DNA of 64,000 bases from positions 8,581-72,580 of the IMG/VR virus record IMGVR_UViG_3300005434_000009; one strand, written 5' to 3'. Below, piece after piece: positions 8,935 to 39,707 of this stretch; position 1 is the first letter of the stretch, and each line of letters begins with the position of its first letter. Origin of the DNA: a virus (lineage: Duplodnaviria; Caudoviricetes). Both the position numbers and the translations under genes were made by a program. Below the pieces are notes generated by a model, which was given only the letters and a program-made list of their open reading frames with translations, did not search any database and was not told where the DNA came from.

Positions 8935-9368
8935 GCCGCGCCTTCCTCGGCGATGAGTTCGGCGAGCTCGGAGTCCACGTCGTAGCCGGCGTACTCCGCC
9001 CCACGGGGGCAGCGGTTATACGACATGGCCAGGAAGGAACGGAGAACCTCGGCACTCATGGAGAACGTGGCCGTACCGGAGAGGCTTTCCAGATGCAGAC
9101 CCACGCAGGTGGGGTTGGCGACGGGGAACACCTGGTAGTCCGACAGGCCGGCGGGGAAGGTCATTCCGTCGGCCAAGGCGTCGCGGGACAGGACCCAGGT
9201 GACGGGCATGGTGTCGCGGGCGATGAACTCCATGGTGACCGCGAGGGGGTAGTTGGGGTCCCAGCGGAGACCCACTCGGACCGGGGTGCGGTCGGGAGTG
9301 CCGGGGTCGAGAGTGAAGACGGCCCAGCAGAGGAGGGAGCCGTCGTTGAGGGTGTAGGTGGTCATCAC
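8931..9368 (-). CDS. SsgA-like (SALP) sporulation/cell-division protein
   Basis: LRWDPNYPLAVTMEF...VTWVLSRDALADG..P.G..D..V.P...HLES.SG.A.F....LRSFL...P.G.E...DVDSEL follows the SALP consensus. Confidence 0.8.
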   Translation of the reverse strand: MMTTYTLNDGSLLCWAVFTLDPGTPDRTPVRVGLRWDPNYPLAVTMEFIARDTMPVTWVLSRDALADGMTFPAGLSDYQVFPVANPTCVGLHLESLSGTATFSMSAEVLRSFLAMSYNRCPRGAEYAGYDVDSELAELIAEEGAA

Positions 9369-10041: not shown

Positions 10042-10220
10042 GCCGCCCACCCCTTCAGTCCGCGACCTGACGTCCCCCAGGGGGCGAGGGCTTCGAGTTC
10101 GTCCCGGTAGTTCTGGCAGCCCTCAACAGCGCAGTGGGCGAGCGGGTGCTCCCCGGTGTCCGGGCAGAGGTCGTCGTCCGGTAGGGGTTCCCGGGGGATG
10201 GAGTAGACGGAGGAGGTCAT
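10038..10220 (-). CDS. Small Cys/His-containing hypothetical protein
   Basis: CPDTGEHPLAHCAVEGC; coupled overlaps. Confidence 0.5.
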   Translation of the reverse strand: MTSSVYSIPREPLPDDDLCPDTGEHPLAHCAVEGCQNYRDELEALAPWGTSGRGLKGWAA

Positions 10221-11074
10221 GAGGCCGCCGCCGTGGTCGAGACAGGTCGTCCGGCGATGTCCACCTCGCGGACCACGAACGCACGGTTGGTCTTACATTT
10301 CGCCGTGCCGGAGTCGGTCAGAGGCCGGAGGTCGGACAGCTTGATCGTGCACTCCAGGAACCGGGTGGCCGCGTAGTCGTAGGACGACGCCTGAGCGGGG
10401 CTGGGCGAGAAGTGCAGGCCGTTGCCGCACTCGTTGGTGTCGCGCCAGTCATCACAAGTGACCTCGGTGCCGACCGTGTAGAGGGCGCCGTGGGCGGAGC
10501 GGTAGTCGTCCCGGACGGCCTTGAACACGGTGACGGTGTCTTCGTTAGGGAGTTGCGCCCCGTGGTAGTCGGCCCAGGTGGCGGGGGCTGACTGGTCGAC
10601 AGCGGTGTGGTCGATGAGGACCCCGCCTTCGATACAGGCGCGGCCGGAGTGCAGGTGCACTGCGGTGTGCGATGAGGCCCTCACCGTGCTGGAGCCGTAG
10701 GCCCTCACCGTGCTGGAGTCGCAGGCCGTCACCGTGCTGGAGCCGCAGGCCGTCACCGTGCTGGAGTCGTAGGCCCTCACCGTGCTGGAGCCGCAGGCCG
10801 TCACCGTGCTGGAGCCGTAGGCCGTCACCGTGCTGGAGCCGTAGGCCGTCACCGTGCTGGAGTCGTAGGCCGTCACCGTGCTGGAGTCGTAGGCCGTCAC
10901 CGTGCTGGAGCCGCAGGCCCTCACCGTGCTGGAGTCGTAGGCCGTCACCGTGCTGGAGTCGCAGGCCGTCACCTCGATCCATACCCCCTGCGGGGAACGG
11001 ATCTCGATCCAACCGACCTTGTCGGCGATCGCCTTGTTCAGTTCAACCTGGTTCTTGACGATGCGCTCGCTCAT
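10217..11074 (-). CDS. Octapeptide-repeat (beta-solenoid) protein with DUF7666-like C-terminus
   Basis: 12 x (T/R)A(Y/C)(D/G)SSTV followed by VFKAV...Y.VG...ECGNGLHF... Confidence 0.75.
   Translation of the reverse strand: MSERIVKNQVELNKAIADKVGWIEIRSPQGVWIEVTACDSSTVTAYDSSTVRACGSSTVTAYDSSTVTAYDSSTVTAYGSSTVTAYGSSTVTACGSSTVRAYDSSTVTACGSSTVTACDSSTVRAYGSSTVRASSHTAVHLHSGRACIEGGVLIDHTAVDQSAPATWADYHGAQLPNEDTVTVFKAVRDDYRSAHGALYTVGTEVTCDDWRDTNECGNGLHFSPSPAQASSYDYAATRFLECTIKLSDLRPLTDSGTAKCKTNRAFVVREVDIAGRPVSTTAAAS
10675..10973. repeat. 24-bp tandem repeat, 12 full units plus a partial unit
   Basis: Unit AGGCC(C/G)TCACCGTGCTGGAG(C/T)CG(T/C) on the + strand. Confidence 0.98.
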
Positions 11075-11637
11075 GCCGCCACCTGCTCTCGGGTCGTAAC
11101 GGGAAGGGGCTGGACGGTGACGGGGGTGAATCGGCCGAACTTCTCGGCGTAGTCCACGAGCTCGAGCACATGGTCGCGGCAGGCGCATTCGCGGCGGGCG
11201 GCGTGTCCCCGGGACTCGAACTCCACGACATACGCCACCGCCTGGTCACACCCGGGGAGACCCTCACAGCGGGTGGAGGCGAGGTGGGACAGCTCGTCGT
11301 CGTGCCGGAACTCGGCCGGCAGGTGCAGGGTCACGTCGTAGACGCGGCGGGCGTACAGGCCCAGATCCAACAGGTCCCGGATGACCCGATCCGCACACCA
11401 ACGGCCGCACACGTCGGTGAAGAACACCGACCCGCCCTCCGTCTTGCGGTAGGTGACACGCCACTGGGCGGGAACGTCCTCGGCGTCGCACTCCCCGCAG
11501 GCTCCGACGGTGTAGGCGTCCAGGTCGACCAGGACGGTGACCCGGGAGTCACGGGCGACCGGAGGGAGGTCGTCGGTGAAGGGGGTGGCGTTCGACAGGT
11601 CGCGGGCCGGGGCAAGTTGTGGGAACATGGTGGTCAC
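11071..11637 (-). CDS. Cys-rich hypothetical protein (paralog of 15891-16373)
   Basis: AGGAGAG RBS before GTG at 11637; CxxC and VCGRWCA motifs. Confidence 0.65.
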   Translation of the reverse strand: MTTMFPQLAPARDLSNATPFTDDLPPVARDSRVTVLVDLDAYTVGACGECDAEDVPAQWRVTYRKTEGGSVFFTDVCGRWCADRVIRDLLDLGLYARRVYDVTLHLPAEFRHDDELSHLASTRCEGLPGCDQAVAYVVEFESRGHAARRECACRDHVLELVDYAEKFGRFTPVTVQPLPVTTREQVAA

Positions 11638-17563: not shown

Positions 17564-17737
17564 TCAGGCGGCCTCCTTGCGCCGTTTCACCGGCACCTGC
17601 TCCGCCGCCCACCGCTCCAGTAGCGGAGTCATGAGGTCGGCGATGAGCTGCTTCTGCTCCGAGGAGAACCGGAAACCCCGGGCGATCTCCTGGGCGGCGG
17701 CTTTCGCTTCCGGGGAGAGCCGGGACGAGGCGGTCAC
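17564..17737 (-). CDS. Small protein after cro (57 aa)
   Basis: GTG overlaps the cro stop; VTASSRLSPEAKAAAQEIARG... Confidence 0.55.
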   Translation of the reverse strand: MTASSRLSPEAKAAAQEIARGFRFSSEQKQLIADLMTPLLERWAAEQVPVKRRKEAA

Positions 17738-17985
17738 GCGGCCGCGCCGTTCGAGTCGTCGTTTTCGTCGGTGAAGTCGTCCAGGCTCACGGGACGCTCG
17801 AGTGCCTTACTGAGCTGCCTCCGTAGGCGGTGGGCCAGCACCGTGCTGGGCTCGTAACCCCACATCTCCATGTTGCGGAGATGGCCTTCGCTGCACTGGA
17901 TCAACACTGCGAGTTGGGAGCGGGACAAGCCAGCTTCTTCCCGGAGTGCCTTCAGGTCACGGCCTCTGATCTTGCGTCCGTCCAT
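17734..17985 (-). CDS. Cro-like XRE HTH regulator
   Basis: LKALREEAGLSRSQLA...SEGHLRNME...PS; divergent from the repressor. Confidence 0.85.
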   Translation of the reverse strand: MDGRKIRGRDLKALREEAGLSRSQLAVLIQCSEGHLRNMEMWGYEPSTVLAHRLRRQLSKALERPVSLDDFTDENDDSNGAAA

Positions 17986-18154
17986 GCGCAGTAATTTAGC
18001 ATTTCCTGCGCTTTCTGCGCAACCGAACGTGTGGGATTTCTACCAGAACGACGCAGGGTTTGCGATGGTGGGGTGTACCGACCCGTGGACCTGGGGAGCA
18101 TCCATGCAGGTGGGCCTAGTTAGTCCTGCGCATGTTCTGCGCTATCGTCGCGTC
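17986..18154. promoter_or_regulatory. Divergent lysis/lysogeny switch with leaderless promoters and repeated operator motifs
   Basis: Minus strand TTGCGC-N18-TAAATT then 7 nt to the cro ATG; plus strand TATCGT then 6 nt to GTG 18155; CCTGCGC...TTCTGCGC at about 18005 and 18125. Confidence 0.55.
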
Positions 18155-18538
18155 GTGCGCTGGACACCCGAGAGCATCCGCAAACGGCGAGACGCCCTTG
18201 GCATGACCCAAGAGCAACTCGCTGAGCGCGTAGGCGCGAGCCTGCGCACGGTATGGGGATGGGAAGACGGTGTAACCCCCCAGAGGAAGTGGACCGAGAA
18301 ACTCAACGAAGTCCTCGGCCCACCGTCAGCGGACACGCCGCGCCAGGAGTCCCTGGCCGACAAGGGCGCCGCACAGTTGGTCGCGGAGATCGCCGAACGC
18401 CTGACCGAGCTGGCCAGCCGCGTACCCCCTGACCGGCTCGCCGGCACCTACGAGAGCCGTTCTGACGACGTCCCAGCGTTTGTAACCGAATCGTTAGAAA
18501 GTGCTCATGAGCAAGAGCGGCGGGAGGCGCTCGGTTGA
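18155..18538 (+). CDS. CI-like immunity repressor (XRE HTH, no S24 peptidase domain)
   Basis: IRKRRDALGMTQEQLAERVGASLRTVWGWEDG..P; alternative start ATG 18104. Confidence 0.85.
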   Translation: MRWTPESIRKRRDALGMTQEQLAERVGASLRTVWGWEDGVTPQRKWTEKLNEVLGPPSADTPRQESLADKGAAQLVAEIAERLTELASRVPPDRLAGTYESRSDDVPAFVTESLESAHEQERREALG

Positions 18539-18627: not shown

Positions 18628-18796
18628 AGCATCCGGGTCACCCCTCGACGGACTATTGACACCGCATGAGGACGATGGTGCACCCTGCGGGTGACAAGAT
18701 CCCCCTGGTTGCTCTAACGAAACGGTGCGAGTAGTAATACTCCGCTCAGTCTTACGGCGGACCGGGGCACCGCCACCTGAAGGGGGATCAGGAGCT

Positions 18797-19099
18797 GTGG
18801 CACAACCGATCGACTGGAACTACTCTTACCGCTCAGACCCTGCGGCGCAGTGGCTGTTCGACCGAGTGGAAACGAACTACGACCTCAAGATAGTGACCGA
18901 TCCGCGCCAGACCAGCCCCGTCCGGGTGAGCCTGCCCCGGGGTGTCATCGCCCTCAAGCCGGACATGGAGTTCCCACGGCTGCACTGGTGGGTGTGCCGG
19001 GCGGTGGCGCTCACCGAACTCGGCCCGAATCTGATCCCCGACCTGATCCCCGTGCAGCGCACCGACAACGTGGTGCCCATCCTGCGACGACCGTGGTGA
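18797..19099 (+). CDS. Putative SOS-inducible antirepressor, ImmA/IrrE-like without HExxH
   Basis: AGGAG RBS + GTG; between repressor and integrase; IALKPDM...VCRAVALTELG aligns by eye with ImmA I.L.P.L...TLAHELVH.ERG. Confidence 0.45.
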   Translation: MAQPIDWNYSYRSDPAAQWLFDRVETNYDLKIVTDPRQTSPVRVSLPRGVIALKPDMEFPRLHWWVCRAVALTELGPNLIPDLIPVQRTDNVVPILRRPW

Positions 19100-19108
19100 C
19101 TGCCCCAG

Positions 19109-20476
19109 TCAGCGCGGGGTGATCCGCACCGTCTCCGGTCGGAACGTCCGTGTGCCCCGGCCCACCGGGAACAGCTCCACGGTGCACAAGGCGTCGATCA
19201 GAGCCCGCTGAACGTGGAAACCGGCCGCCTCGAACTTCTCCTCCCGTTCCTTCTCCGCAAGGTTGAGGAAGGGGCCGATGATGTCGAAGCGGCCGGAATC
19301 GGTCATGCGGAGCTCCACCGCATCCAATCTCGCCCGCACCCGGCTGGTCATCAACCGGAACTGCGCGGGGGTGACGACCGGGTCGTCGGTGAACTCCTCG
19401 GCGAGTTCCCGCAGCTGCCGGTGCAGGTCGTCCGCCTCGGCCCGCAGGGCGTCCAGGTCGGGTTTGTCCCGGTCGACGATGTACTCGAACGCGCCCGGCT
19501 CACCCAGGATGAGCAGCACGGTGTAGGTGACGTAGTCGTCCACCGGTTGGGCGAGGCGGTTGACGTGTTTCATGGACCGGCAGCGGTAGATGCGTTTCCC
19601 GTGGGAGGCGCCGCCGCCGTGGACGAGCAGCCCACACACCCCACACCTTCCGATCCCGGTCAACAGTTGGGTGGCGCCGGGGGTGCCGGTCCGGCGTTCG
19701 GGGCGGGACAGGATGTCCACCACATCCCGCCACACCCCTTCATCGACCAGCGCCTCCCACTCAGCGCGGACGTCCATGATCTCGCCCTTGTAACGACGTT
19801 TCCCACAGTTGCGGGGGTTCAACAACACCCGGCGGACGTTGTCGATCCGCCACACACTGTTCTGCCCGGTGCGCAACCCGGCGTTGTTCCAACGGCGGGC
19901 GATCTCAGCCAACGGCACACCCGACTGCGCCCACACGTAGCCGTCACGGATGGCGTCGGCTTCTTCGGGGACGATCTCGACACCGCGACTGTTGTAGCCG
20001 AAGGGTCGCCGGCCGCCCATGCGTCGGCCTTGCTCGGCGGCCTGGCGGTGTGCGCGGATCTGCCTCTCCGACTTCATGTCGATTTCGTGCTGCGCGACCT
20101 CGCCCAGCAACCCGATCAACAGTCTCCCAGATGGGGACGTCGGGTCCATGTCGGTGCCCTGGACGAGGGCGACGACCACGTTGTGGGCTTGGCAGGCCTC
20201 AACGAGCGCGAGACGGTCCCGGGGGTTGCGGGTGAGCCTGTCCAACGCCCAGGCGACGATGACGTCCACGCGGCGGTCCTGGACGGCTTTGAGCATGGCC
20301 TGGAACTGGGGGCGGGGTTTGCGTCCGGAGGCGGACACGTCGTTCTCGGTGTAGACCACCGTCTTGGTCCAGCCTCGTTGCTGGATGAGGCGTTCGCAGT
20401 CCTCGAGCTGCCGGGCCACGCCGAGGCCTTCGCCGACGCGGTCCTGCGAAATCCTCACGTATATGGCGGCTCTCAC
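19109..20476 (-). CDS. int: Large serine integrase
   Basis: AAIYVRISQD, END.SAS, DRLTR, recombinase domain, Zn ribbon CGVCG...YRC; TAGTCT -10 seven nt before GTG (leaderless). Confidence 0.95.
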   Translation of the reverse strand: MRAAIYVRISQDRVGEGLGVARQLEDCERLIQQRGWTKTVVYTENDVSASGRKPRPQFQAMLKAVQDRRVDVIVAWALDRLTRNPRDRLALVEACQAHNVVVALVQGTDMDPTSPSGRLLIGLLGEVAQHEIDMKSERQIRAHRQAAEQGRRMGGRRPFGYNSRGVEIVPEEADAIRDGYVWAQSGVPLAEIARRWNNAGLRTGQNSVWRIDNVRRVLLNPRNCGKRRYKGEIMDVRAEWEALVDEGVWRDVVDILSRPERRTGTPGATQLLTGIGRCGVCGLLVHGGGASHGKRIYRCRSMKHVNRLAQPVDDYVTYTVLLILGEPGAFEYIVDRDKPDLDALRAEADDLHRQLRELAEEFTDDPVVTPAQFRLMTSRVRARLDAVELRMTDSGRFDIIGPFLNLAEKEREEKFEAAGFHVQRALIDALCTVELFPVGRGTRTFRPETVRITPR

Positions 20477-20551
20477 GTGCGCTAGACTAGCCCCCAGGCC
20501 AGCGGAAGCACGTGTTTCTAGCGTACGTTGCAGGTATAGATGGGGGCGGCC

Positions 20552-20761
20552 ATGACCAGCACAAAGACGGTGCGAGTACCTAAGCCGGCCCCGCCGACTG
20601 AGCCGCCCCGTTCCGGCGCCTTCCGCTTCTGGCTGGGAACGGCCCCGAACCCCTTCCCCGAGTACACCCCGCTCGACGAGTGTGAACACTGCGGGGCGAT
20701 GGTCCTCACCGCCACCTTGTCCCGACACCACGCCTGGCATCGACGTCAGGCCCACATCTGA
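20552..20761 (+). CDS. Small Zn-binding protein (possible directionality factor, unproven)
   Basis: CEHCG...H..WH; divergent from int. Confidence 0.45.
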   Translation: MTSTKTVRVPKPAPPTEPPRSGAFRFWLGTAPNPFPEYTPLDECEHCGAMVLTATLSRHHAWHRRQAHI

Positions 20762-20802
20762 TGGTGTCAGGGTCACCGGTAGTGGGAGAGGAAGGTGGGG
20801 GG

Positions 20803-21318
20803 ATGAGCGAACTGGTCGAGTGGTTGACCGCGATCCTGGACGAGCACGAGCGGGTGGCGCGGGCTGCGGACGAGAAGGCGTTGAGCCCCTGGCGCAACTC
20901 CAACGGACTCGTCAAGCACTCCGGACCACCCGAGGGTGGACATGGGCGCGACAATGGCCTCTGGGACGACGAGGGAACTTCGGGCATGAAGGTGGACCAC
21001 CAGCTGTGCATGCTCGGTGAGATCGCCGAGCATGTGGCCCTGCACGATCCGGCGGCCGTCCTAGCTCTCATCCAGGCGCAGCGACAGATTTTGGCCGCCC
21101 ACGCCCCGACCCGGTACACCAACGCCGACCTTGGGATCAAGGACGCACCCGTTTGTCTCACCTGCCATGCGGTGATGGACTCCCCCGAGGATTGGCCAGA
21201 CGAAGCAGACTGGTCCTACCCCCTGGTCCAGCGCTCTTTCCCCTGTCCGACTGTTCGGGCCCTTGCTTCCGCCTACCGGCACGCACCGGGCTGGGATGAG
21301 GCGTGGGGGTCGACATGA
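20803..21318 (+). CDS. DUF6221-like protein
   Basis: LVEWLTAILDE.ERVARAA...HVALHDPAAVLA...PCPTVRALASAYRHAPGWDEAW. Confidence 0.75.
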   Translation: MSELVEWLTAILDEHERVARAADEKALSPWRNSNGLVKHSGPPEGGHGRDNGLWDDEGTSGMKVDHQLCMLGEIAEHVALHDPAAVLALIQAQRQILAAHAPTRYTNADLGIKDAPVCLTCHAVMDSPEDWPDEADWSYPLVQRSFPCPTVRALASAYRHAPGWDEAWGST

Positions 21319-21632
21319 CCGACGCGAGGATCGAGTTCATCCGCCGCTGCTTGGACGCCGAAGAGCAGCACATCCGACAGGACGCGGCGAGGGCCCGGGA
21401 GATCCGGACCGCGTGGGGTTTGCCGCAACACGAGCCGACTGGGCTGCTGTCCACCGACTCCCGGATGCTCCCCATCGAGGCGCACAGGGAGATCGTGGAC
21501 ACCTGCGAGCACTACCTGCACGAGTACGAGTCGGGCATCGATCCCTGCGCTAACGGGGTTCTCGATGCGCTCGTGGCCGCGTACAGGGAGCACAGCTTCG
21601 ACGGCCGACACCCCAGTTGGGGGCCGACGTGA
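21315..21632 (+). CDS. Second DUF6221-like protein
   Basis: IEFIRRCLDAEE...IEAHREIV...VLDALVAAY...HPSW. Confidence 0.6.
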   Translation: MTDARIEFIRRCLDAEEQHIRQDAARAREIRTAWGLPQHEPTGLLSTDSRMLPIEAHREIVDTCEHYLHEYESGIDPCANGVLDALVAAYREHSFDGRHPSWGPT

Positions 21633-22306
21633 CCCGCCCTGGAACGTTCGCCTGGTTCGGCGCGAGCACCGTGTGGTTCGGAGCCGCAACCCTCTCGTTC
21701 TCTGGTCTGGACGGCCTAGCCCAGTCCTGCTACATCTCCCCCACACTCGCTCCGCTCATGCCCCTGGTGATCGACGTCGGGGTTGCTGTCGCCGCCTGGG
21801 TGTGGCGCAGAGGTGTCAACCCTGACGCGGCACGGTTAGCCGGCCGGATGACGTGGAGCCTGTTGGTGCTCACCGTTGTGGGTAACGGGTCGCATCTGGG
21901 CATGGAGGCCAGTCACGTCCTCCCGCCGTGGTGGGCGGCCGCGATCGTTGGAGCGGTGCCGCCTGCCGTCGCTGGAGCCGTCGCTCACCTGCTGGTGCTG
22001 CTCGGGCGAGGCGATGTGCAGCTGGATGTACAGGAGCCCGTTATTTGCGCGCAGGAGCCCGAGGTAATTGCACAGCGCAAACCGGCCCCTGCACCGTCTC
22101 GGCCGAAGCGGACCAGCGTAGCCGCACCCACCGACAGAACGGTTTCCGAGACCCGGGCCGCTGCTCTCCTCGCCTCCGGGGCAGGGAGACGGCGGATCAG
22201 CCGTGAGCTTGGGGTGTCGGAGCATCAGGCCCGGGTGTTGCTTGAGCAGCACGCGGCGGAGAAGACCCCGAACAATGGTCACCCGGTGTTAGAGGAGGCG
22301 AAATAG
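21629..22306 (+). CDS. DUF2637-like membrane protein with C-terminal HTH (plasmid/AICE spread-type)
   Basis: LSFSGLDGLA...APLMPLVIDV...VGNGSH...GAVPP.V...AHL; 4 TM segments; C-terminal AGRRRISRELGVSEHQAR. Confidence 0.75.
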   Translation: MTRPGTFAWFGASTVWFGAATLSFSGLDGLAQSCYISPTLAPLMPLVIDVGVAVAAWVWRRGVNPDAARLAGRMTWSLLVLTVVGNGSHLGMEASHVLPPWWAAAIVGAVPPAVAGAVAHLLVLLGRGDVQLDVQEPVICAQEPEVIAQRKPAPAPSRPKRTSVAAPTDRTVSETRAAALLASGAGRRRISRELGVSEHQARVLLEQHAAEKTPNNGHPVLEEAK

Positions 22307-22752
22307 TGGGCTGCGACATCCACCTGATCGTCCAGGCCCGTCGTGACGGGAAGTGGGAAGACGTGGAACTCAACCTGGACGGGACCAACGAGTACAACGA
22401 ATCGTTCTGGGAGTCTCAGTCCTACGCCACGTTCGCGGTCCTGGCAGCTGTGCGCAACTGGCCCGAGTCAGGTCTCACTCCCATCTCGACTCCACGCGGG
22501 CTGCCGGACGACTTCGAGTGCCAGGACGACCGCGTGCCCTCGCGCCGTCGTTTCAACCTGGGAGCCCTCGTCGGCGACGTGGAGCGCAACGGCAAGGACT
22601 TGGGCGAGCACTCCCACTCCTGGGTCACCCTCGCTGAACTGAAGGCTGTTCCGGAGGGCCAGCAGTGGGCGTTGCCTGAGGGCTGGATCCCGGAGCTGGA
22701 GAAGTACGGCGCACCCGATGACGTCCGGCTCGTGTTCGGCTTTGACTCGTGA
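22306..22752 (+). CDS. Conserved phage hypothetical protein
   Basis: MGCDIH...Y..FA.LA.VRN...PRGLPDD...HSHSWVTL.EL. Confidence 0.7.
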   Translation: MGCDIHLIVQARRDGKWEDVELNLDGTNEYNESFWESQSYATFAVLAAVRNWPESGLTPISTPRGLPDDFECQDDRVPSRRRFNLGALVGDVERNGKDLGEHSHSWVTLAELKAVPEGQQWALPEGWIPELEKYGAPDDVRLVFGFDS

Positions 22753-22910
22753 CAGCCCTCCTCATCGCCTTCGTGGTCTGGCTCTTCTGGCCGGAAAAGA
22801 CGCGCTGGCATCCCTTCGAGGGCATCTACAACTTCAACCGTAAGACCGGGCAACTGAAGATCGCGGTCACGTTGCCGACCAAGAAGAACGCCAGGAAGAG
22901 GAAGAGATGA
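22749..22910 (+). CDS. Small membrane protein with basic tail (53 aa)
   Basis: VTALLIAFVVWLFW...KKNARKRKR; coupled on both sides. Confidence 0.5.
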   Translation: MTALLIAFVVWLFWPEKTRWHPFEGIYNFNRKTGQLKIAVTLPTKKNARKRKR

Positions 22911-23128
22911 GCCGTTCGCACCCGCGCTGCTGGACGGGCGAAGCCTACGTCCACACCTGCCACGAGCCGTCTGGTCGAACCTGCCTGGACTGCGACCGGC
23001 CCGCTGGAACGCCGTGGGGGCCGTACTGGTGCCCGGATTGCGACGTGAAGCGACTCGACCGTTGCACCGCTGGGTTGATGGAGATCCAGGCGGCACTGGA
23101 CGAGCAACGCGAACTGAGGCAGTCGTGA
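22907..23128 (+). CDS. Small Cys-rich protein
   Basis: CLDC...W.PYWCPDCDVKR. Confidence 0.6.
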   Translation: MSRSHPRCWTGEAYVHTCHEPSGRTCLDCDRPAGTPWGPYWCPDCDVKRLDRCTAGLMEIQAALDEQRELRQS

Positions 23129-23241
23129 CCCCCACCATCGCCTCCCTCTTGGCTGCTCTCCTGGTATGGGGAACACGGATCGAGGTTCGGGTCAGGCGGG
23201 AGCAGAGGCCGGCACCGGAGAGCGTGGAGGTGGAGGGCTGA
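23125..23241 (+). CDS. Small membrane peptide
   Basis: IASLLAALLVW; coupled on both sides. Confidence 0.4.
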   Translation: MTPTIASLLAALLVWGTRIEVRVRREQRPAPESVEVEG

Positions 23242-23552
23242 TGGGCGGCTGGATGACGTACGGCCGCTTGCGCTCCCGGAACAACTTGCAGCGGAAGCCC
23301 GACGACGACCCAGACCCCTACTGGCGAGATCAGAGTAAGCACTCCTACGCCTCCGGCAACCCAGTCCGCGCGCTGCTCGCAGGCGAGCTGAACAGGATGG
23401 AGCGCGACTACCTGGACCCGCAGTACCCGGAGCCCCCGTTCGCCGCCCGGTCGCCTGGCAGCGACCCGCTCACCGAGTGCGCCACCGCCACTGGAGTGGA
23501 CCGTGAGGTCGTCCGTCGGGTGCTCCGTCATGTGTTCCGAGAGTCCCCATGA
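23241..23552 (+). CDS. Hypothetical protein
   Basis: GGAGG RBS; coupled to the traB-like start. Confidence 0.55.
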   Translation: MGGWMTYGRLRSRNNLQRKPDDDPDPYWRDQSKHSYASGNPVRALLAGELNRMERDYLDPQYPEPPFAARSPGSDPLTECATATGVDREVVRRVLRHVFRESP

Positions 23553-25633
23553 CCGAGCCCGTCCCGGCTGTCCTTGTCTCCGACGAGGAGTTCGCCCGCC
23601 GCTTCAACGCCCGCCAGGCTGTGGCCGCCCGGGCGAACGTCGCCCGCTCCGACGTGGTGACTGTCGCCCGGGTCACCCGCCGTGTCGCCACCCACGACCG
23701 CACCCGGGCGGTATGCCGGGAGATCGCCTACATCCCAGGTGGGGTGGCAGCGGCGGCAAAGTGGTGGCGGGAGAACTGCACGGGGGCCGGATACCAGCGG
23801 GCGATCCGTGACGCCGAAGCGAAAGGCGACTACGAAGCCGTCATCCAGCTGCGGAAGTTGGCGGACGACGAGCGGCATCGCCGGTTCGAACGGATCATGA
23901 CCTACATCCGGGCCCCGCAGGAGCTGCTGAAAGCCCTCGTCGTCATCGCCGTCGTCGCCGTCGGCGGCCTGCTGCTGCTGGGTGTGGCGGCTGCGTTGGC
24001 GTTCGGGGATCCCACCCTGGCCACCGGGCCCATCCGGGCCGTCATGTGGGCGGTCGCCACAGCGGTATGGCTGTGCACCGTCGGCGGCAGCCTGCTGGTG
24101 GGCGGGTTGTGTGGGCTGGTCGTGCTGTGCCTGTGGGCTGCTGGGAGGCGGGCGGGGAACGTCCCGGAGTTCCTGGCGCCAGCGGCGGAGCGGGAGGCCC
24201 GGCGGGAGGAAATCACGCCCGCCCTGGCGGTGATGGCGTTCCGGGACCTGGGGGTCGCCGAGCTCCGCAAACGGATCCTGGCGTTGCCGGACAACGGGGC
24301 GCCCATGATCTCTCAGATCCGCCCGGCCGGGTGCGGGGTGGAGTTCGACGCCACCCCACCCAGAGGTTCCACATCCACGGCGGTGATCCTGTCCCGCCAC
24401 GACCGGCTGTCGGAGAACATCAACCGCCACCCGCACGAGGTGCACCTGTCGGTCCCGCAGAACCAGCCGGGGACGGTGCGGGTGTGGGCGGCGGACCCGG
24501 GGGCGTTGGACGAACCGATCGGGGCGTCTCCGCTGGTCTACGACGACGAGATCAAAGCGGACTACCGGCGAGGCGCGGCCCCGTGGGGTGTGACGCTGCG
24601 GAACGACCCGGCTGAGATCCGGCTGTATCAGATCCACGTGCTCATCACCGGCAAGTCGAACCAGGGCAAAACGGCGGCGCTGCGGTCGCTGGCTTTGTGG
24701 CTGTCCCTGGATAAGCGTCCTGAGCTGCGGATAGCTGACCTGAAGGGGATGAACCCCACCACGAAACGGTCGGATTGGGCGATGTTCGAGGGCATCGCCA
24801 CCGAGTTCATCGCCGGCCCCACCGATGACCACGTCGCTGAGGCCACGGAGATGTTGGAGCGGGTGGTGGCGGAGATGAACCGTCGTATTCAACGGGGCGG
24901 GAACTGGGATCCGCTGATCGCCATCGTCGACGAAGCCCAGGTGGCGTACATGTGCCCTGCGAAAGGGCCGGACGGGCGACCCTACGGCGGGTCGAAGAAC
25001 ACCTCCCGGTTCCTGACCGCTGTGCGGCAGATCCAGAACCAGGGGCGGGCGGTTGATGTGCTGCTGTGGGAGGGGACCCAGGACCCCACGAACCAGAACC
25101 TCCCCATCCTGGCCCGCGAGGGCGCCCACCTGCGGATTTGCCTGGCGGTGGGGACGGAGGAGAAGTCCCGGATGGCGTTGGGTGACAACGCGGTGGAAGG
25201 CGGGGCCGCACCGCACCGTCTACGGCCTGGCCTGGACAAGGGGACTGTGGTGGTGGCGGGTGACGGTGCACCGTTGTCGGCCGGGCAGGCGTCGGTGACG
25301 ATCCGAACCCACTTCATCGATGACAAGGACGCCACCGCCATCGCCAACCGGGCGAAGAAACTGCGCGGCCCGCTGGTCCCCCGCCCCCCGGAGCAGGAGC
25401 GGGACCTGCTTGAGGACGTGTTCGAGCTGATGGGCGACGCCGAGCAGGTGCCGGCCGCGACGATGGCCCGCCTGCTGCACCCGGTGGACCGCCGGTACGC
25501 CGTGATGGACGGGGTTCAGCTCAAGGCCCGACTGGACGATCTGGGGGCTCTGGTGACGAAGAACAAGGGTGTTCCGATGGTGTACCGGTCCCGCATCCAG
25601 GCGGCGATGGAATCCCGGGGGGAGGGCGCGTGA
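23549..25633 (+). CDS. FtsK/SpoIIIE-family DNA translocase, actinomycete plasmid TraB type
   Basis: N-terminal TM pair, Walker A ITGKSNQGKT, Walker B IAIVDEAQ, TQDPT, C-terminal winged-helix-like DLLEDV..LMG. Confidence 0.85.
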   Translation: MTEPVPAVLVSDEEFARRFNARQAVAARANVARSDVVTVARVTRRVATHDRTRAVCREIAYIPGGVAAAAKWWRENCTGAGYQRAIRDAEAKGDYEAVIQLRKLADDERHRRFERIMTYIRAPQELLKALVVIAVVAVGGLLLLGVAAALAFGDPTLATGPIRAVMWAVATAVWLCTVGGSLLVGGLCGLVVLCLWAAGRRAGNVPEFLAPAAEREARREEITPALAVMAFRDLGVAELRKRILALPDNGAPMISQIRPAGCGVEFDATPPRGSTSTAVILSRHDRLSENINRHPHEVHLSVPQNQPGTVRVWAADPGALDEPIGASPLVYDDEIKADYRRGAAPWGVTLRNDPAEIRLYQIHVLITGKSNQGKTAALRSLALWLSLDKRPELRIADLKGMNPTTKRSDWAMFEGIATEFIAGPTDDHVAEATEMLERVVAEMNRRIQRGGNWDPLIAIVDEAQVAYMCPAKGPDGRPYGGSKNTSRFLTAVRQIQNQGRAVDVLLWEGTQDPTNQNLPILAREGAHLRICLAVGTEEKSRMALGDNAVEGGAAPHRLRPGLDKGTVVVAGDGAPLSAGQASVTIRTHFIDDKDATAIANRAKKLRGPLVPRPPEQERDLLEDVFELMGDAEQVPAATMARLLHPVDRRYAVMDGVQLKARLDDLGALVTKNKGVPMVYRSRIQAAMESRGEGA

Positions 25634-25694
25634 CGATCGCGAAAAACCATCGGATCCAGGCCGATCCGAGGTTCGGAGCCCCCGCTCTCCCATG

Positions 25695-25740
25695 CCACCT
25701 GAGCAGCATAAGTGCAGGTCAGCGTGCTATACTCAGGTGG
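25695..25740. promoter_or_regulatory. Inverted repeat enclosing a -10 box at the recombinase 5' end
   Basis: CCACCTGAG-N28-CTCAGGTGG; TATACT at 25728-25733 six nt before the in-frame GTG at 25740. Confidence 0.45.
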
Positions 25741-26783
25741 TGGACGGCGTGAAGCATTCGCAACCTCGCCCCCCGAGTCAAGCTCCCGTTGAGGATCCAA
25801 AAAACGGGGTCGACCAGGTCGTCTTGAGCACCGTTAACAAAACTTATGGCGGTCCGCTCGCCGAGGAACTGGACGATCTCACGCGCGCCGATCTCGATAG
25901 CGCGCCACCACAGAACACGCTGGACGCCTACAGGTACGCACACGAGTCGTTCGCCAAGTTCTGCCGTGAGATCGGCTCGCCCATCTGCCCGGCTCCGGAG
26001 TCCACGTTGACCCGCTATGTGTCCCGGATGAACCGGGACGGGTACGCGCCCGCCACCATTACCCAGCACGTCGGGGCGATCCGGGCGATGCACAACCAGC
26101 ACGGCCACCCGGGCGAGCCGAACACCTACCGTGCGTCGCTACTGCTGCGGAAGTACCGGCGACAGCTGGCTCAGGGAGACGGGCAGCGGCAAGCCATCCC
26201 GATCGAGCCGGAGTCGCTCCGCCGCATGATCGCCACCCTGGACGTGACCACAGTGAAGGGGCAGCGGGACCGGCTGGCGTTGACGCTCGGGTTCTGCGGG
26301 ATGCTCCGCCGCTCCGAGCTTGTCGGGCTGCGAGTACACGATGTGACCGTGACCGGCGACGGAGTGACTCTGCGGGTGCGGACCAGCAAGACGGACAAGG
26401 ACTCGCAGGGGCGCGTGGTGCCGATCCCACCGCAGGGCGATCCTGACCCGAAGGCGCTCACGAGGGCGTGGTTGAACCTGGTCAATTCCGGCTTCCTGCT
26501 GCCACGTGTGTCCCGCTCGGACGAACTGATGGACGGGGCGTGGCGCGCGGCCGGTGTGTGCGACATGGTGGCCCGTTGCGCCCGGGATGCACACCTTCCG
26601 TCGCCGGATCGCTACACGGCCCACTCCCTGCGGGCCGGTGGCCTCACCGCATCGCTGCGCGCCGGCACCCCCGCTGGCGTGGCCGCACGGCACGGAGGCT
26701 GGTCACCGGAGTCCGCGATGGTGGGCCGGTACGCCCGTGTTGCCGATCAGTGGAAGCACAACGCCATGAGAGGCGTCCTATGA
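25740..26783 (+). CDS. Tyrosine recombinase, Cre-like
   Basis: SAM-like core-binding domain, then MLRRSEL, SKTDK, HSLRAG, HGGW, catalytic Y in MVGRY; start may be 25692. Confidence 0.9.
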   Translation: MDGVKHSQPRPPSQAPVEDPKNGVDQVVLSTVNKTYGGPLAEELDDLTRADLDSAPPQNTLDAYRYAHESFAKFCREIGSPICPAPESTLTRYVSRMNRDGYAPATITQHVGAIRAMHNQHGHPGEPNTYRASLLLRKYRRQLAQGDGQRQAIPIEPESLRRMIATLDVTTVKGQRDRLALTLGFCGMLRRSELVGLRVHDVTVTGDGVTLRVRTSKTDKDSQGRVVPIPPQGDPDPKALTRAWLNLVNSGFLLPRVSRSDELMDGAWRAAGVCDMVARCARDAHLPSPDRYTAHSLRAGGLTASLRAGTPAGVAARHGGWSPESAMVGRYARVADQWKHNAMRGVL

Positions 26784-27112
26784 GCGAAGCGCGCCGGTTC
26801 TGGACCTACGGTAAGGACCAGTGGTCGGGCCCGCTGATCTCACGCAGCGGGGACGAGTACGGCAACTCCACCGTGGTCTTCCGCCTGCCGGGTGAGCGGG
26901 CGCTGATCGTGGCGTACAACTGGCCGCTGCGCCGTGAGCTGGAACCGTGCGAAGGCCGAGTCGAGTGGGGCGCGGTGAACGATGACCACGGCGCCCCGAT
27001 GGACAACCCGTTGCCGCTCGCGGGCCCCGACTTGCGGGGCTTGCCTCCGGAGGAGTGGAAGCTGGTTCGGCGTGAGCTTTGGGCCAGCCCGTGGCAGGAG
27101 GTGCTGGAATGA
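26780..27112 (+). CDS. Hypothetical protein
   Basis: ATGA overlap with the recombinase stop. Confidence 0.55.
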   Translation: MSEARRFWTYGKDQWSGPLISRSGDEYGNSTVVFRLPGERALIVAYNWPLRRELEPCEGRVEWGAVNDDHGAPMDNPLPLAGPDLRGLPPEEWKLVRRELWASPWQEVLE

Positions 27113-27420
27113 GCGGCGACGGCTGGCCGTACATGTCTGACGCTGAGATCGAAGCCGTCCAGCGCAAGGTGAGCGAACCGGGTTACGTCCCACCTCCGTA
27201 TCCGCCTCTTCACGGTCTCCTGCACCAGCTTCTGTCCTCAATCGACCGGAAGCCTGACATCCACCGCGTTCGGGTCGACAGCACGTGGTGGGACGTCCTG
27301 GGTTGGGAGTGCTCCTACCGGTATCAGGCGAAGTGTCGGTGCGGTTGGTACGGCGACGAGACCAAGTCGAAGGTGACAGCTGAGCGGCAGGCGGAGTGGC
27401 ATGCGAGCTCGAAGCTTTAG
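27109..27420 (+). CDS. Hypothetical protein with CxCGW...H motif
   Basis: AKCRCGW...SK..AERQAEWH. Confidence 0.55.
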   Translation: MSGDGWPYMSDAEIEAVQRKVSEPGYVPPPYPPLHGLLHQLLSSIDRKPDIHRVRVDSTWWDVLGWECSYRYQAKCRCGWYGDETKSKVTAERQAEWHASSKL

Positions 27421-27434
27421 CAGGTGGGGACGTT

Positions 27435-27741
27435 ATGAGTGACGTGATTCGCTGGGAAGACCCACCGGAATGGCGAACCCTCCCGCTGTTTGATGAACTC
27501 CACGCCCAACCGTTGCGGTGGGCGGTGATCTGGGAGGAAGGCAGCGGGACGACCGATGAGCTGTGGGCACTCCAGAAGGCCTTGCTATCTACATCCCCGC
27601 GTGAAGTCCGACCTGGAGCAACGACACCAGGTCAGGCCCGACGGTGGCGACTCCTACTACCCCAAGGCGCTGCGCGCGGTGTACGTACCGTTCGGGGAAT
27701 CGTGGCATGGTCCGACCTACCGGGGCCAGTCGGATGCCTGA
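27435..27741 (+). pseudogene. Probably frameshifted small gene
   Basis: N-terminal half in one frame, C-terminal half (..DGGDSYY..) in the +1 frame ending in ATGCCTGA coupling to the next gene; break near 27585-27591. Confidence 0.4.
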
Positions 27742-27985
27742 CTCCCCGCCGACGCTCACCCGCGTGTCCATCGACCTGAACGTGCGAGTCCGTGGGCGGC
27801 AGACTCTCGCTGGCCTGGAGGACGTCCACGGTCCGATCGAGGTGGGCCAACTGGTGGAGGTGTTCGAGGAGGAGTCCGGTGCCTACGGTCCGGGGTATGT
27901 GATGGACATCGACACGAAGAAGCGGCTGGTGTACCTGTCGGTGGACTGGGCTGGGATGCGACTACCGGAGGCTGACTGTGGTTGA
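27734..27985 (+). CDS. Hypothetical protein
   Basis: IDLNVRVRG...VFEEESG..G.G.V.DID...LVYLSVDW. Confidence 0.65.
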   Translation: MPDSPPTLTRVSIDLNVRVRGRQTLAGLEDVHGPIEVGQLVEVFEEESGAYGPGYVMDIDTKKRLVYLSVDWAGMRLPEADCG

Positions 27986-28448
27986 GCTCGACATCATTGA
28001 GTCCGAAGCCGTTCCAGCTGACGGTAAGGACGGGCGGCCGGCGTCATTCATCCAGTGGAAGGGCACCGACCTGTGCGCTGATTTCTTCTGCCCGTGCGGG
28101 AGCGGTGGGCACATCGACGCCGGGTTCGCCTACTCGGTGCACTGCACAGAATGTGGTCGCCGCTGGCACCTGGCCCCCGTGCTGTTGGTGCGGGAGATGA
28201 AACCCGGTGAGTTCGACCCGGGTGAGGCGGTGATCGACCTCTACGACGATGACGCCGACGAGAGAATGGCGATGCCGGTATTCACCAGGAACTGGCCTGG
28301 CCACAAGTGCCCGGTATGCGGGGTGATGATCGCAGAGGTGAACACCACCCGGGACGGTGACGCCGCCCAAACGCTCCCCTGTGGTTGTCGTTGGGACCGC
28401 AGCCGTGAGGGGCAGTGGAAGCACCAGGGCGAGCACCGGCATGTCTGA
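27978..28448 (+). CDS. Zn-ribbon hypothetical protein
   Basis: FIQWKGTDLC.DF.CPCG..GH.D..F.Y...CTECG plus a second CPVC...PCGC. Confidence 0.7.
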   Translation: MVELDIIESEAVPADGKDGRPASFIQWKGTDLCADFFCPCGSGGHIDAGFAYSVHCTECGRRWHLAPVLLVREMKPGEFDPGEAVIDLYDDDADERMAMPVFTRNWPGHKCPVCGVMIAEVNTTRDGDAAQTLPCGCRWDRSREGQWKHQGEHRHV

Positions 28449-35902: not shown

Positions 35903-38900
35903 CTACGGGGTGACACCGGAGGTGGTGACGACCTTCGTCCACGGCCCCGGTGGGGGTGCGTCCACGAACTGCCAGGTGATGTGGTCGTTCTCCCCGTCGA
36001 GTTCGGCGTAACCAAGGCAGCCGTTCAAACTGGGGCTCACGTCGGCGCCCGCGCCGTTGTACTCGCGGTTGGCGGGTCGGGCGTCGTTGTCCCCGAACGC
36101 GTAGGCGGCGTCGTGGTAGGTGCCCGGCCCGGCGTCCTCCACTTGCCCGTAGCAGGTGTTCCCGTTCGGGCCGGTGAGCTTCACCCAACGGTTCTTCATG
36201 TAGGAGAAGTTCGGGTCGGAGCACTTGCCCGCATAGCCGGGGTCGTTCGCCCACGGGACCGTCTGACAGCGCGACTTGAACGCCGAGCTGTCATTGATGT
36301 CATCGAAGGGCAGATCCAGGTAGAACGGGTTCTCCTTCGGTGTGGCCTTCGTCGGCCAGAAGTCGGGGGCTTTCCGCGCCTCGGTGGCGCAGGTGTTCTT
36401 GCCTGCCACGCCGTCGCAGCCGCCCAGTGGGGAGCCCGCGCAGTCGGTGCCGCTCCCGGCCACAGCGGTGCTCTTCACCCCTGACCAGTGGTAGGCCCAC
36501 TGGGAGTCGTAGGTGGAACACACCTGGGAGCCGTCTGGGCGGGACGGGTCGAAGATCTCCCCCACCCAGAACGTCGTGCTGACGATGCCGGTGTGCACCG
36601 GGTACACCCGGCCGGTAGACGGGGTGGTCGTCGGCGCGGGAGTTGTCGTAGTCGGAACCGGCGTCGGTACGGGTGTGCTCGTCACCGGCACCGGGGGCGG
36701 CGGGGTGGTGCCTGGGTCGCCGCCGGCGTGGATGCCGATCGCCGCCAACGCCGCCAACAGTGCGGCGATGAACGCCGCCCACCAAAGAGGCTTCGTCGAA
36801 GGCGGAGCAGGGTCCGGTACGGGTGCAGGGTCTGGCTGCGGCGTGGGATCAGGCACAGGCGTCGGCGTCGGATCGGGAACCGGCACGGGATCCGGAACAG
36901 GCACCGGGGCCGGGGCCGGCTTCACATAACCCGGGTCCCCCTCGAGCACGCCTTCGTCGGTCTTCGAGAACAACCAGTTCCCCGCGCCATCACCGACGAA
37001 CTTCCAGATGGAGGAGAAGTCCGCGTCGTCCCACGAGCTCGGGGTCTTCGCGTTCCACTTCCCACCGAGCACCTTCACCAGAGCGGAGGCCACGGCGGCG
37101 ATGGCGGAGTGCTCGAGCACCGCCAGCACCGTCTTGCCGGCCAAAGCCTGCTTCGCCAGGAGTTGCGCGGTCTGGGTGACCGCGTTCTCCGAGTCCAGGC
37201 TGGTGTCGATCGACAGACCGAGAGCGGTCGCCGTGGGTTGCGCGGTTTGGAGCATCCGCATCGACATGGTGTTGCCCTTCGACGCGAAGATCCACGTCGG
37301 CCGGTACAGGTCCGCCTTGGGGCCTGTGAAGATGGGCGGTAGGGCGTTGGCCCGCTGTACACCCTTCGGGGCGAGGGTGTGGTCGTTGGCGTCGGCGGGC
37401 TTCTCACCATGCCGGATTATCTGGATCTTGATTCCGGCGGACGGTGCAGGAACCGGTACAGGATCCGGCGTGGGCGTCGGAGCCGGCGCCGAGCCGGGCC
37501 CTGGGCCCTTCGTGACCGGGATACCGACGCCGTTCTTGTAGCTCCCCGTGATGTTGTTGTCCTCGTAGAACTTCACGTTGGAGCCCTGCGGCAGGTCCAC
37601 GATCTTGTCGGAGCTGCCGGCGAAGGTGTTCCGGGTGATGTCGACGTTGTCGACGCCGTCGAGCTTGATGCACTGGTTCCAGGAGTCGCCGAAGTAGTTG
37701 TCGGCGACCACCCAGTTCTTCATGCCGCTGGAGCTGCCGCCGCTGTTCCCGCCCCGGCCGTAGTCCTCGGCCATGATGCACTGGTGGATCGACGGCACCT
37801 TCGGGTCACGCTTCGGGTTGGCCGGGCCGACGAACTTGTTGCCCCGGATCTCGATGTTGCTGGACGCCGTGGGATGCGAGCTCGAGACCCAAAATTGAAT
37901 CGCGTCCGTGTGGCTGTCCCCGGGGTCCCCGACGACATAGTTGATCGCCGTGTTGTACAGGATGCGCAGGTTGTTCCCGAACGCGGTGATCGCGTTCAGG
38001 TCCCCGTCACCGCTGACCTTCACTCCGGTGATGTCGTTGTTCTGGAACGTGATGTTGTCGGCGTTGAGCACAGCCCCGTACTGGCCGCCGGCGACGATCC
38101 GGTAGTTCTGCACCGTCACATTCGAAGCGTTCACGGTGACCCGGCCGACCTTGTGCCCCTGGCCGTCGTACGTTCCGGCCTTGGTTATGGTCAGCGGGGA
38201 CGTCGAGTCGGCGGTGGCCACAATCGCCCCGGCCGGGGTAGCCACTCCCCCGACACCGAGCGTCTGAGTCGCCGGCGGGGTAACGACCGGCGGCGGGTCC
38301 ACCACAGGCGGTGGGGTGACCACAGGAGGCGCGCTCTGCGGTCCCGGGTACGCGCCCAGGCCGGAGCGGACCTTCCGGGCTAGGATCTCCCCGTACTGAC
38401 CCCTCGAATCCGTCTTCAGATTCGACTGCAAGTAGTTCAGCAGCTTCGCGTAGGTCTTGGAGCTCTGCGGCATCTTCGTGGTGGTCAGGATCGGAGTGCC
38501 GTCCCGGTACACCGTGGGGGCACCCTTGACGATCCCGAACCCCAGCACCATGGGCCGCCCGGCCTCGTGGGGGATGACCGGCTGCCCCTTCGAGGTTCCA
38601 GCCACCCGCTGGGTGAGTTCGAACCCGCCGGCGGAGTTGCGCTGCCAGATGACCTCGAGCAGATCGTCTTTGTCGGAGTGCAGCTGGAAGATGCACATCT
38701 GCGGCTTGCCGTCAGGCAGGTGCAGCGGGGACACCTCATACTCGAACCAGCAGTCCAGTTTGCTTGAGTCCCAGGCCGCTTCCTTGCCGGCCGCCGTCAT
38801 CTGCCGGAGCTCGCCACGCGGATACGACGATCCGTCCGTGGTTCCCGCGTCCACCGGGACCCGGATGTCGACCCACTGGCCGTCCTTCGTGACCTGAAAA

Positions 38901-39037: not shown

Positions 39038-39707
39038 GGTGTTCTCCTGGGATCGGCGAATCAGCGGTGGGGCGCGGCTCCGGCATCCCGGGAACTGGGC
39101 GCGTGAACTGCTGAGCTGCGATGGCGGCCTGGCGGGCCGCCGCACGCCGCCGCACGTTGCGCTTATCACGGTTGGCTTCGCGGAGCAGGCGGACACATAA
39201 CTGACACTGTCGAGAGCCGGATGTTCGGTTGATCTTTACGTTTTCCGGGCTCAGTTCATGCCCACGCTTACAGTGGGCCTGCCGGTGCGGCCGAGCCTTG
39301 AGGTTCTCCGACCGCGTTTGTGCCACAAGGTGATCCGGGTTGATGCAGCGCCGATGCGTGCAGGTGCGCCAGTCCTGACAATCCAGGTCTTTGTCGTGGC
39401 ATGCGTGACCGACGTCGTACTTCTCAGGGACCGGTCCGATGTGGTGCTCGTAGGACGCGACATGAGCCGCAGTGTGCTTCTTGGTCACTCCGTACCCGTT
39501 GTCGTTCACGAAGCCGGGCCAAAGCCAACAGCCGTTCTCGTCGGGGACGATCGTGGCCAAGTGCTCCTCAAACGAGTGAGTGCGCTTCGCGTGCTCGCCG
39601 AGAGTGCCGCGTCTGCGGCGCCTGTAGTAGCAGCTCTTGCAAAGTCCTCGCGCGCCACCGGCTCTGCGTTCTTTGCCACAGTCCAGACAGGCGTTATCGT
39701 CCGACAT
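39021..39707 (-). CDS. HNH homing endonuclease
   Basis: CWLWPG..N.NGYG...AHVASYE..IGP.P...HACH...CINPDHL...SEN + CKRGH. Confidence 0.85.
   Translation of the reverse strand: MSDDNACLDCGKERRAGGARGLCKSCYYRRRRRGTLGEHAKRTHSFEEHLATIVPDENGCWLWPGFVNDNGYGVTKKHTAAHVASYEHHIGPVPEKYDVGHACHDKDLDCQDWRTCTHRRCINPDHLVAQTRSENLKARPHRQAHCKRGHELSPENVKINRTSGSRQCQLCVRLLREANRDKRNVRRRAAARQAAIAAQQFTRPVPGMPEPRPTADSPIPGEHRADTR

Follow-up and report, generated by a model that had tools for sequence, protein, structure and literature searches.

A conjugation-type TraB gene module in uncultured temperate actinophages and its possible role in phage DNA transfer

The stretch of DNA analysed here (64,000 nucleotides, hereafter the window) comprises bases 8581-72580 of the 72,580-bp linear IMG/VR virus record IMGVR_UViG_3300005434_000009. 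On its plus strand lies a module spanning 21617-26783, which encodes a DUF2637 protein, four small proteins, a 694-amino-acid (aa) DNA translocase of the FtsK/TraB type and a recombinase (Table 1). Genes were called from GC3 bias and annotated with PHROGs and Pfam. At most of its junctions the block shows gene overlaps of 4 nt, and we therefore regard it as a translationally coupled operon, in agreement with the single coupled operon described in the initial annotation of this DNA. Comparison of sequences and gene orders supports the view that the module shares homology and synteny with the transfer and spread module of integrative and conjugative elements of actinomycetes (AICEs). That the module is neither a nested AICE nor the remnant of one, but a long-standing and selected part of a phage lineage, is also well supported.

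The translocase, TraB, contains Walker A (GKSNQGKT) and Walker B (IVDEAQ) motifs. Three hydrophobic 19-mers are found at aa 120-187, hydrophobic helices at about aa 120-200 and, in the AlphaFold2 model, long helices at aa 95-202; association with the membrane through the N-terminal hydrophobic helices is thus predicted. The motor domain was modelled confidently, and its best structural matches are TcpA (Foldseek E 6e-12) and FtsK motors (E 3e-11). A search of the protein sequence against PDB gave no match. For the C-terminal 75 aa the model gives an H-S-H-H-S-S topology with a pLDDT of 80.5, and the structural neighbours of this tail are nearly all winged helices, with weak scores (Foldseek E of at least 0.2; VIA-align Z 5-6.3). 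The earlier description of a membrane-anchored FtsK/SpoIIIE ATPase with a winged helix-turn-helix tail therefore holds for the motor and for the predicted transmembrane (TM) helices, and the tail is suggested by weak structural similarity. When all module proteins were searched against NCBIfam, nothing was found except weak Xer matches of the recombinase.

The assignment of the first module gene to a DUF2637 membrane protein was confirmed, as its product scores above the Pfam threshold for PF10935 and has TM-like segments. It ends in a basic tail resembling a helix-turn-helix (HTH), and the C-terminus is conserved in the alignment. The gene lies upstream of traB, in the same position as the spdB/DUF2637 gene of AICEs (for example in locus L050, described below), SpdB being the plasmid-spreading membrane protein of these elements. 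The small open reading frames (ORFs) that follow had been presented as several micro-membrane proteins; this did not hold, since a single N-terminal hydrophobic helix occurs in the 53-aa ORF alone, and the 148-, 73- and 128-aa ORFs look soluble by their hydrophobicity. The 53-aa ORF is conserved in four related loci (L005, L007, L008 and L048). The DUF6221 family, to which the genes heading the operon belong, occurs in phage-type relatives and was not found by tblastn in any of 80 AICE-type genome loci. A Pfam search of the small ORFs behind the module, at the end of the plus-strand block, returned no matches.

Relationship to AICEs is most direct for TraB, which shares 50% identity over 648 aa with TraB of a chromosomal Streptomyces AICE (L050), and 43-48%, depending on the aligned span (43% over 691 aa), with the FtsK/SpoIIIE protein of a Streptomyces plasmid (L002). 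The latter is the 13.5-kb NZ_CP108827.1, which bears a textbook AICE set of int, xis, DUF3631, Prim-Pol, traB, spdB and GntR genes. In L050, the order is DUF6284, DUF6303, DUF2637, two small genes, DUF6257, TraB, Prim-Pol, D5N helicase, xis and int. Both L050 and L002 have DUF2637 or spdB, small genes, traB, PrimPol/helicase, xis and int in this order, so that the succession of DUF2637, small genes and traB corresponds to the AICE arrangement for transfer and spread. By Pfam, no AICE replication gene was found in the module, nor was there a tblastn match with the PrimPol, DUF3631 and D5N proteins of AICEs; no xis was found beside the module recombinase. The initial annotation was thus right in reporting neither Rep nor excisionase; a second recombinase, which it had misnamed, stands next to traB.

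The clade members whose gene context was checked were L005/L006, L007, L008, L048, L049, L051, L052, L053, L137 and L138, plus the window. The closest relatives of TraB, with 84-52% identity, are all metagenomic. In a maximum-likelihood tree of 71 TraBs, the window and all the checked loci fell into one 26-row clade (SH-aLRT 100), apart from which stands a 30-row clade with the verified AICE copies. In all 11 checked relatives the module is located downstream of the Cro/cI switch and the main integrase, on the repressor strand. In contigs long enough to show it, lysis and tail genes lie convergently to the module. The convergent genes in relatives include those for GDSL lipase, Peptidase_M15_4, Amidase_2, CHAP, holin, and pectate and alginate lyases. 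An AICE replication gene was found in none of the 11. Relatives differ in whether their main integrase is a serine or a tyrosine enzyme (the gene of the window was compared with L005:2041-3240, L007:4600-5757 and L008:2882-4096), and the TraB block was retained through this exchange.

A scan of IMG/VR with the TraB profile yielded 39 further viral contigs with 36-50% identity, or 40 records together with L004; 15 of the 40 carry the phrog_2 terminase, circularly assembled records with direct terminal repeats, 49.8 and 86 kb in length, included. Phage association was also seen for a third TraB clade (L031, L036, L004 and others), and L036 repeats the order of DUF2637, TraB and recombinase. Among 185,579 species-representative genomes, the genera with TraB matches, all at or below 53% identity, were Streptomyces, Kitasatospora, Amycolatopsis, Lentzea and others related to them. 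Neither the DUF6221 nor the recombinase signature was seen in the 80 best loci from these genomes; PrimPol occurs in 41 of the 80 AICE-type loci, and about half have Prim-Pol or an AICE-type DUF2637. Neither megablast and tblastn of TraB nor tblastn of the DUF2637 protein gave a match among the 50,697 sequenced phages of INPHARED. As the TraB clade with its Cre-like partner is absent from these phage isolates and from the 80 best genome matches, its biology resides in uncultured hosts.

Could the module be an integrative element in its own right that is nested in the phage, be it an AICE without rep or a phage-parasitic island, and uses the tyrosine recombinase as its integrase at a conserved phage target site? 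The recombinase has a putative promoter of its own, and the gene order is similar to that of an AICE minus rep and xis. Another locus, L054, shares two adjacent late genes with the window and has other accessory genes at the equivalent place; it was tried as an empty site and rejected as too diverged. We nevertheless consider a nested element very improbable. Att-like borders, named at the outset as the sign of an inserted element, were looked for and are lacking: only chance-level pairs of direct repeats were found between 17.5 and 31.5 kb, ARAGORN detected no tRNA genes around the module, and the GC content (64-69% throughout the window) does not shift across it. Moreover, the TraB clade was met in phage contexts only (11 of 11), with the signature missing from the genome loci as described above, and the genes flanking the block differ among relatives, so that no conserved target site is visible.

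Pairwise dN/dS ratios were 0.20-0.53 for TraB, 0.36-0.40 for the recombinase, 0.26-0.55 for the small ORFs and 0.24-0.65 for other conserved genes of the module. Purifying selection is seen over a divergence of TraB down to about 52% identity, and all ORFs are intact. Taken together with the constant position, the lack of AICE rep and xis, and the absence of att borders and of a GC break, these ratios (0.2-0.65) indicate that the module belongs to the phage lineage and did not arrive as an inserted element. They also make it extremely unlikely that we are dealing with a functionless remnant of an old AICE capture, because intact ORFs under selection and synteny kept in 11 contigs would not be expected of one. 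Such decay would be in accord with the lack of a recognised clt site (see below) and with the IS605-family OrfB and Y1 transposase genes that lie just upstream of traB in L049 (L049:7124-8748), a relative borne by a metagenome-assembled genome.

The last gene of the module had been called a resolvase. Its product has no match to PF00239, and both the Phage_integrase match (PF00589) and the similarity to P1 Cre, its best solved relative (E 1e-10 over the full length, aa 46-311), identify it as a tyrosine recombinase; the motifs LRRSE, SKTDK, HSLR and GRY are present in the translation. The Resolvase domain PF00239 occurs in one protein only, the minus-strand large serine integrase, whose gene lies beyond the span claimed for the module. 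Assignment of the module enzyme to XerC or XerD proper was rejected, as its NCBIfam scores are far below the equivalog cut-offs. Translation may start at 25740 (leaderless GTG) or 25824 (TTG), and not as in the ORF given initially (25569-26783), because in L008 a stop codon interrupts the upstream extension and places the true start downstream of the traB stop. In 9-10 of the 11 checked relatives, traB is immediately followed by a short tyrosine recombinase. Orthologues from L005, L008 and L049 show 59-68% identity to the window copy, and the copies in L007 and L048 only 31%. The nearest homologues in isolated phages are found in Microcystis phage Mwe-JY05 (PP395638.1), with 38% identity, and in the Streptomyces plasmid-phage ZL12 (GQ919031.1), with 25.7%.

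The region between traB and the recombinase gene contains an imperfect inverted repeat (Table 1), conserved only partly in L005 and L008, for which a role as terminator, recombinase site or clt site is conceivable. The sole invariant non-coding stretch between the two genes among the window, L005, L007 and L008 is the TGC-TATACT block, present in one copy in the window. Its form suggests an extended -10 promoter from which the recombinase would be transcribed without a leader; a consensus scan for promoters found nothing. Just ahead of the annotated start of the recombinase, at 25785-25812, there is a hairpin-forming motif, CCCGTTG...GGATC...AACGGGG, which recurs in L005 and L049 and whose GATC core is invariant in four relatives.

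The main rival explanation is that TraB and the Cre-like recombinase form an intracellular segregation and resolution pair of the FtsK-XerCD/dif or P1 Cre-lox type. Such a pair would act on circular phage genomes, replicating or excised, which it would resolve and distribute over hyphal compartments and spores, and DNA would not pass from cell to cell. The retention of a recombinase after traB in nearly all relatives, even where it was swapped for a copy as distant as those of L007 and L048, is consistent with this possibility, and so are the similarity to Cre and the inverted repeat between the two genes. Further hints come from particular relatives. In L051, a 189-aa protein with an FtsK_gamma domain (L051:8797-9366, 33.6 bits) is encoded directly upstream of traB and coupled to it; the FtsK gamma domain reads KOPS sequences and activates XerD. 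In L004, of the sister clade, a ParA-like gene (1301-1933) follows traB instead of a tyrosine recombinase, and the ParA-like ATPase hints at an extrachromosomal prophage. We consider this explanation unlikely, however, since the closest characterised-type relatives of the pump are the conjugation TraBs of AICEs and not chromosomal FtsK, and a DUF2637 protein is encoded upstream of traB at the position of the AICE spread gene. Moreover, the recombinase is missing from one clade member, L052, and a phage that integrates, as the encoded serine integrase implies, would have less need for dimer resolution of the plasmid type.

Another possibility is that the module acts in competition or in manipulation of the host, by excluding AICEs, plasmids or phage DNA from the lysogen or by mobilising host chromosomal DNA from it. 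The module is situated next to the integrase and repressor genes, on the repressor strand, and temperate actinophages often keep lysogeny-expressed genes in this region. Two relatives have a divergent regulatory gene upstream of the TraB block: a GntR-NUDIX fusion in L053 (L053:4805-5482) and a GntR regulator in L052 (L052:4158-4412). In pSAM2, the KorSA repressor and the transfer-immunity factor Pif have domains of these types, and the Pif-like gene beside the module in one relative would fit with an exclusion function. PADLOC reported a weak match of the ATPase to mad8 (7.9e-5), but this reflects P-loop similarity of a generic kind, and the remaining module proteins matched no defence family in that search. 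In addition, a whole pump with its predicted TM anchor and putative DNA-binding tail has been kept under purifying selection. We therefore regard a role of this kind as distinctly improbable.

The explanation that we prefer, and to which we would give an even chance, is that an AICE-type Tra/Spd module has turned into a vertically inherited, selected component of an uncultured temperate actinophage clade and serves DNA transfer. The ensemble is not an AICE, since where an AICE has int, xis and rep, the phage has integrase, immunity and replication genes of its own. By analogy with pSVH1, the most likely role of the module would be to pump circular phage double-stranded DNA (dsDNA) across membranes or septal cross-walls, and transfer independent of virions is plausible. 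That the module shares its strand with the repressor gene suggests that it is expressed by the prophage. In the proposed sequence of events, the module would be transcribed from the repressor strand, and TraB would anchor in the membrane through its TM helices and assemble into an FtsK-like ring. The winged-helix tail would then bind a site in cis on circular phage dsDNA, which TraB would pump into neighbouring hyphal compartments or mating partners with the assistance of the DUF2637 protein and the small coupled proteins. The Cre-like recombinase, from its own promoter, might resolve multimers to monomers or circularise the DNA, and the serine integrase could set up lysogeny in the recipient, the phage bringing its own genes for replication and integration. 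A broader version of this proposal is that members of the clade propagate in two modes, as virions and, after excision of the prophage, as naked dsDNA moved by TraB between hyphae or mating partners and processed by the Cre-like recombinase. This version is more tentative, and we find it somewhat doubtful.

Several observations weigh against transfer as the function of the module. The main weakness is that a clt site was not found. The TraB recognition sequence (TRS) of pSVH1, GACCCGGA, occurs in the window at chance frequency only, and the same is true of GATCCGA window-wide. Neither traB nor the DNA behind it had clustered 7-9-mers, and the module showed no local cluster of 8-mers, although the same repeat script, in a positive control, recovered an 8-copy repeat directly after traB in the AICE L050; TRF detected short coding repeats only. 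Apart from TraB, the module proteins show no BLAST-level similarity to AICE proteins, and for the DUF2637 protein, whose pairwise BLAST comparison with the AICE copy was not significant, the link exists at the family level only. TraB of the window scores 17.2 bits with Pfam FtsK_SpoIIIE (PF01580), below the cut-off of 24, in comparison with 35.8 for the AICE homologue. The recombinase is also absent from L052 and replaced by a ParA-like gene in L004, and transfer by any member of the clade is something that we infer throughout.

The phage surroundings of the module are summarised in Table 1. The record is about 89% complete according to CheckV, and TerL is cut by the contig end; TerL and the capsid, portal, tape measure and tail genes, at 31-64 kb, agree with the tailed phage that had been recognised here, and this linear contig is to be called nearly complete instead of complete. 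The true start of the CI-like repressor probably lies inside the listed ORF, and the arrangement of this gene is the same in L049 and L138; the real start of the serine integrase is probably near 20480. The SsgA-like protein encoded in the early region points to a mycelial, sporulating actinomycete as the host, and manipulation of host septation by this protein is possible. A gene of the DUF7666/phrog_15773 type (10217-11188, minus strand) contains about 12 tandem copies of a 24-bp unit at 10675-10970, which give rise to an 8-residue protein repeat, and its homologue with 80% identity was found at the start of L048. Among the late genes, a 1097-aa protein (35903-39196, minus strand) has an alginate-lyase domain, and at the equivalent position L052 (L052:16971-19345) has separate alginate-lyase and pectate-lyase-fold genes; these products are probably tail-associated depolymerases.

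Table 1. Features of the window, with the TraB module and its intergenic region first and the surrounding phage genes below
Feature	Position	Strand	Details
Plus-strand block containing the TraB module	20761-28448	plus	between early/lysogeny genes and late genes
Two DUF6221 genes heading the plus-strand operon	20761-21318, 21303-21632	plus	Pfam DUF6221 69.7 bits; second 20.9 bits, below cut-off
DUF2637 membrane protein	21617-22306	plus	Pfam PF10935 31.6 bits, cut-off 22.8
Four small coupled ORFs (148, 53, 73, 128 aa)	22306-23552	plus	148-aa ORF is phrog_10141; 73-aa ORF Cys-rich, zinc-finger-like
TraB-type FtsK-like dsDNA translocase, 694 aa	23549-25633	plus	N-terminal region, 2-3 TM helices, motor domain, winged-helix-like tail
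Imperfect inverted repeat, 11-nt arms, 6-nt spacer	25646-25673		begins 13 nt past traB stop
Promoter-like motif ending TGC-TATACT (extended -10)	25712-25733	plus	in-frame GTG codons at 25737 and 25740, 4-7 nt past the hexamer
Cre/Xer-like tyrosine recombinase	25740-26783	plus	Pfam Phage_integrase (PF00589) 34.2 bits, cut-off 27.1
Four or five small coupled ORFs ending the plus-strand block	26780-28448	plus	vary among relatives; weak L008 match for one only
Early/replication block	1-18 kb	minus	PAPS-reductase-like, ParB-like, primase/helicase, replication initiator, SsgA-like, methyltransferase
SsgA-like protein	8931-9368	minus	PF04686, 74 bits
Cro-like HTH protein, immunity-switch context	17734-17985	minus	Pfam HTH_31/HTH_3
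CI-like repressor ORF, divergent from the Cro-like gene	17870-18538	plus	Pfam HTH_31 27.5 bits, HTH_3 25 bits
Conserved ORF	18725-19099	plus	between CI-like gene and serine integrase
Large serine integrase, the phage's own	19109-20776	minus	Pfam Resolvase 114.6 bits and Recombinase 44.1 bits; phrog_95 4.6e-97
Late block	28.5-64 kb	minus	alginate-lyase-containing tail protein, tape measure, major capsid, portal, TerL

If the module works as we propose, it would provide the phage with a second, capsid-free route of spreading through the mycelium or between strains, and would represent a natural intermediate between prophages and AICEs. The view of host range, phage resistance and gene flow in antibiotic-producing actinomycetes would then have to be changed. 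If, in addition, both modes of propagation are used, receptors and surface defences would be bypassed, and the boundary between phages and conjugative elements would become blurred.

The combination of a phage with genes of this kind is not without precedent, and the claim of an undescribed system could not be maintained. According to the articles that cite Zhong 2010 (PMC3583192, PMC7157519, PMC4487206), a locus for conjugal transfer is present in the Streptomyces plasmid-phage pZL12, and Thoma et al. 2015 proposed that SpdB2 homologues on actinophages assist spreading of phage DNA (PMC4447253). FtsK-like genes have been noted in Streptomyces phages and linked to host development (PMC10117723, PMC13587820), and the integration and replication modules of AICEs are thought to be phage-derived (PMC2440964). 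In the open-access text, we found no paper that reports integrating phages with an AICE-type TraB among their conserved genes.

Among known systems, the motor domain of TraB is structurally closest to TcpA of the Clostridium plasmid pCW3, as described above. Transfer by TcpA concerns single-stranded DNA and involves a relaxase and an apparatus of several proteins, whereas the phage module has no relaxase; sequence identity is 16%. The pairing of a short, simple tyrosine recombinase with a pump of the FtsK family recalls P1 Cre-lox and FtsK-XerCD/dif; the phage pump, however, belongs to the conjugative TraB lineage, and it has no established lox- or dif-like site. In pSVH1, TraB hexamers recognise clt via their C-terminus and pump dsDNA, which Spd membrane proteins spread through the recipient mycelium (PMC4447253). 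Compared by architecture, the phage module resembles the TraB-clt-SpdB2 systems of pSVH1 and pIJ101 (PMC4447253) in its FtsK-like pump with predicted membrane anchor, putative C-terminal DNA-recognition domain and translationally coupled membrane proteins, the pump of those plasmids being hexameric; it differs in that no array of 8-bp TRS/clt repeats was found in the window, and the DUF2637 protein is only a possible SpdB2 homologue.

As far as the citing articles describe it, pZL12/ZL12 is likewise the genome of a tailed phage, from Streptomyces, with a conjugal transfer locus, and it also encodes a distant homologue of the Cre-like recombinase (25.7% identity, see above). By the same accounts, ZL12 is an extrachromosomal plasmid-prophage with ParAB, whereas the phage of the window integrates. 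The pZL12 record gave no match to PF01580 or to the TraB profile and, as far as these searches go, was rejected as a homologous precedent, so that it is a conceptual precedent only. The closest counterparts are the pSAM2-like AICEs (L050, NZ_CP108827.1), with which the module shares TraB at 43-50% identity over the full length, the arrangement of DUF2637/spdB, small genes and traB and, in some phage relatives, GntR/NUDIX genes. Unlike these elements, the phage module has no PrimPol, RepSA or DUF3631 gene, no xis and no att repeats. It is ringed by virion, lysis, immunity and replication genes, its TraB forms a separate clade, and it adds to the AICE scheme the DUF6221 genes and a Cre-like recombinase.

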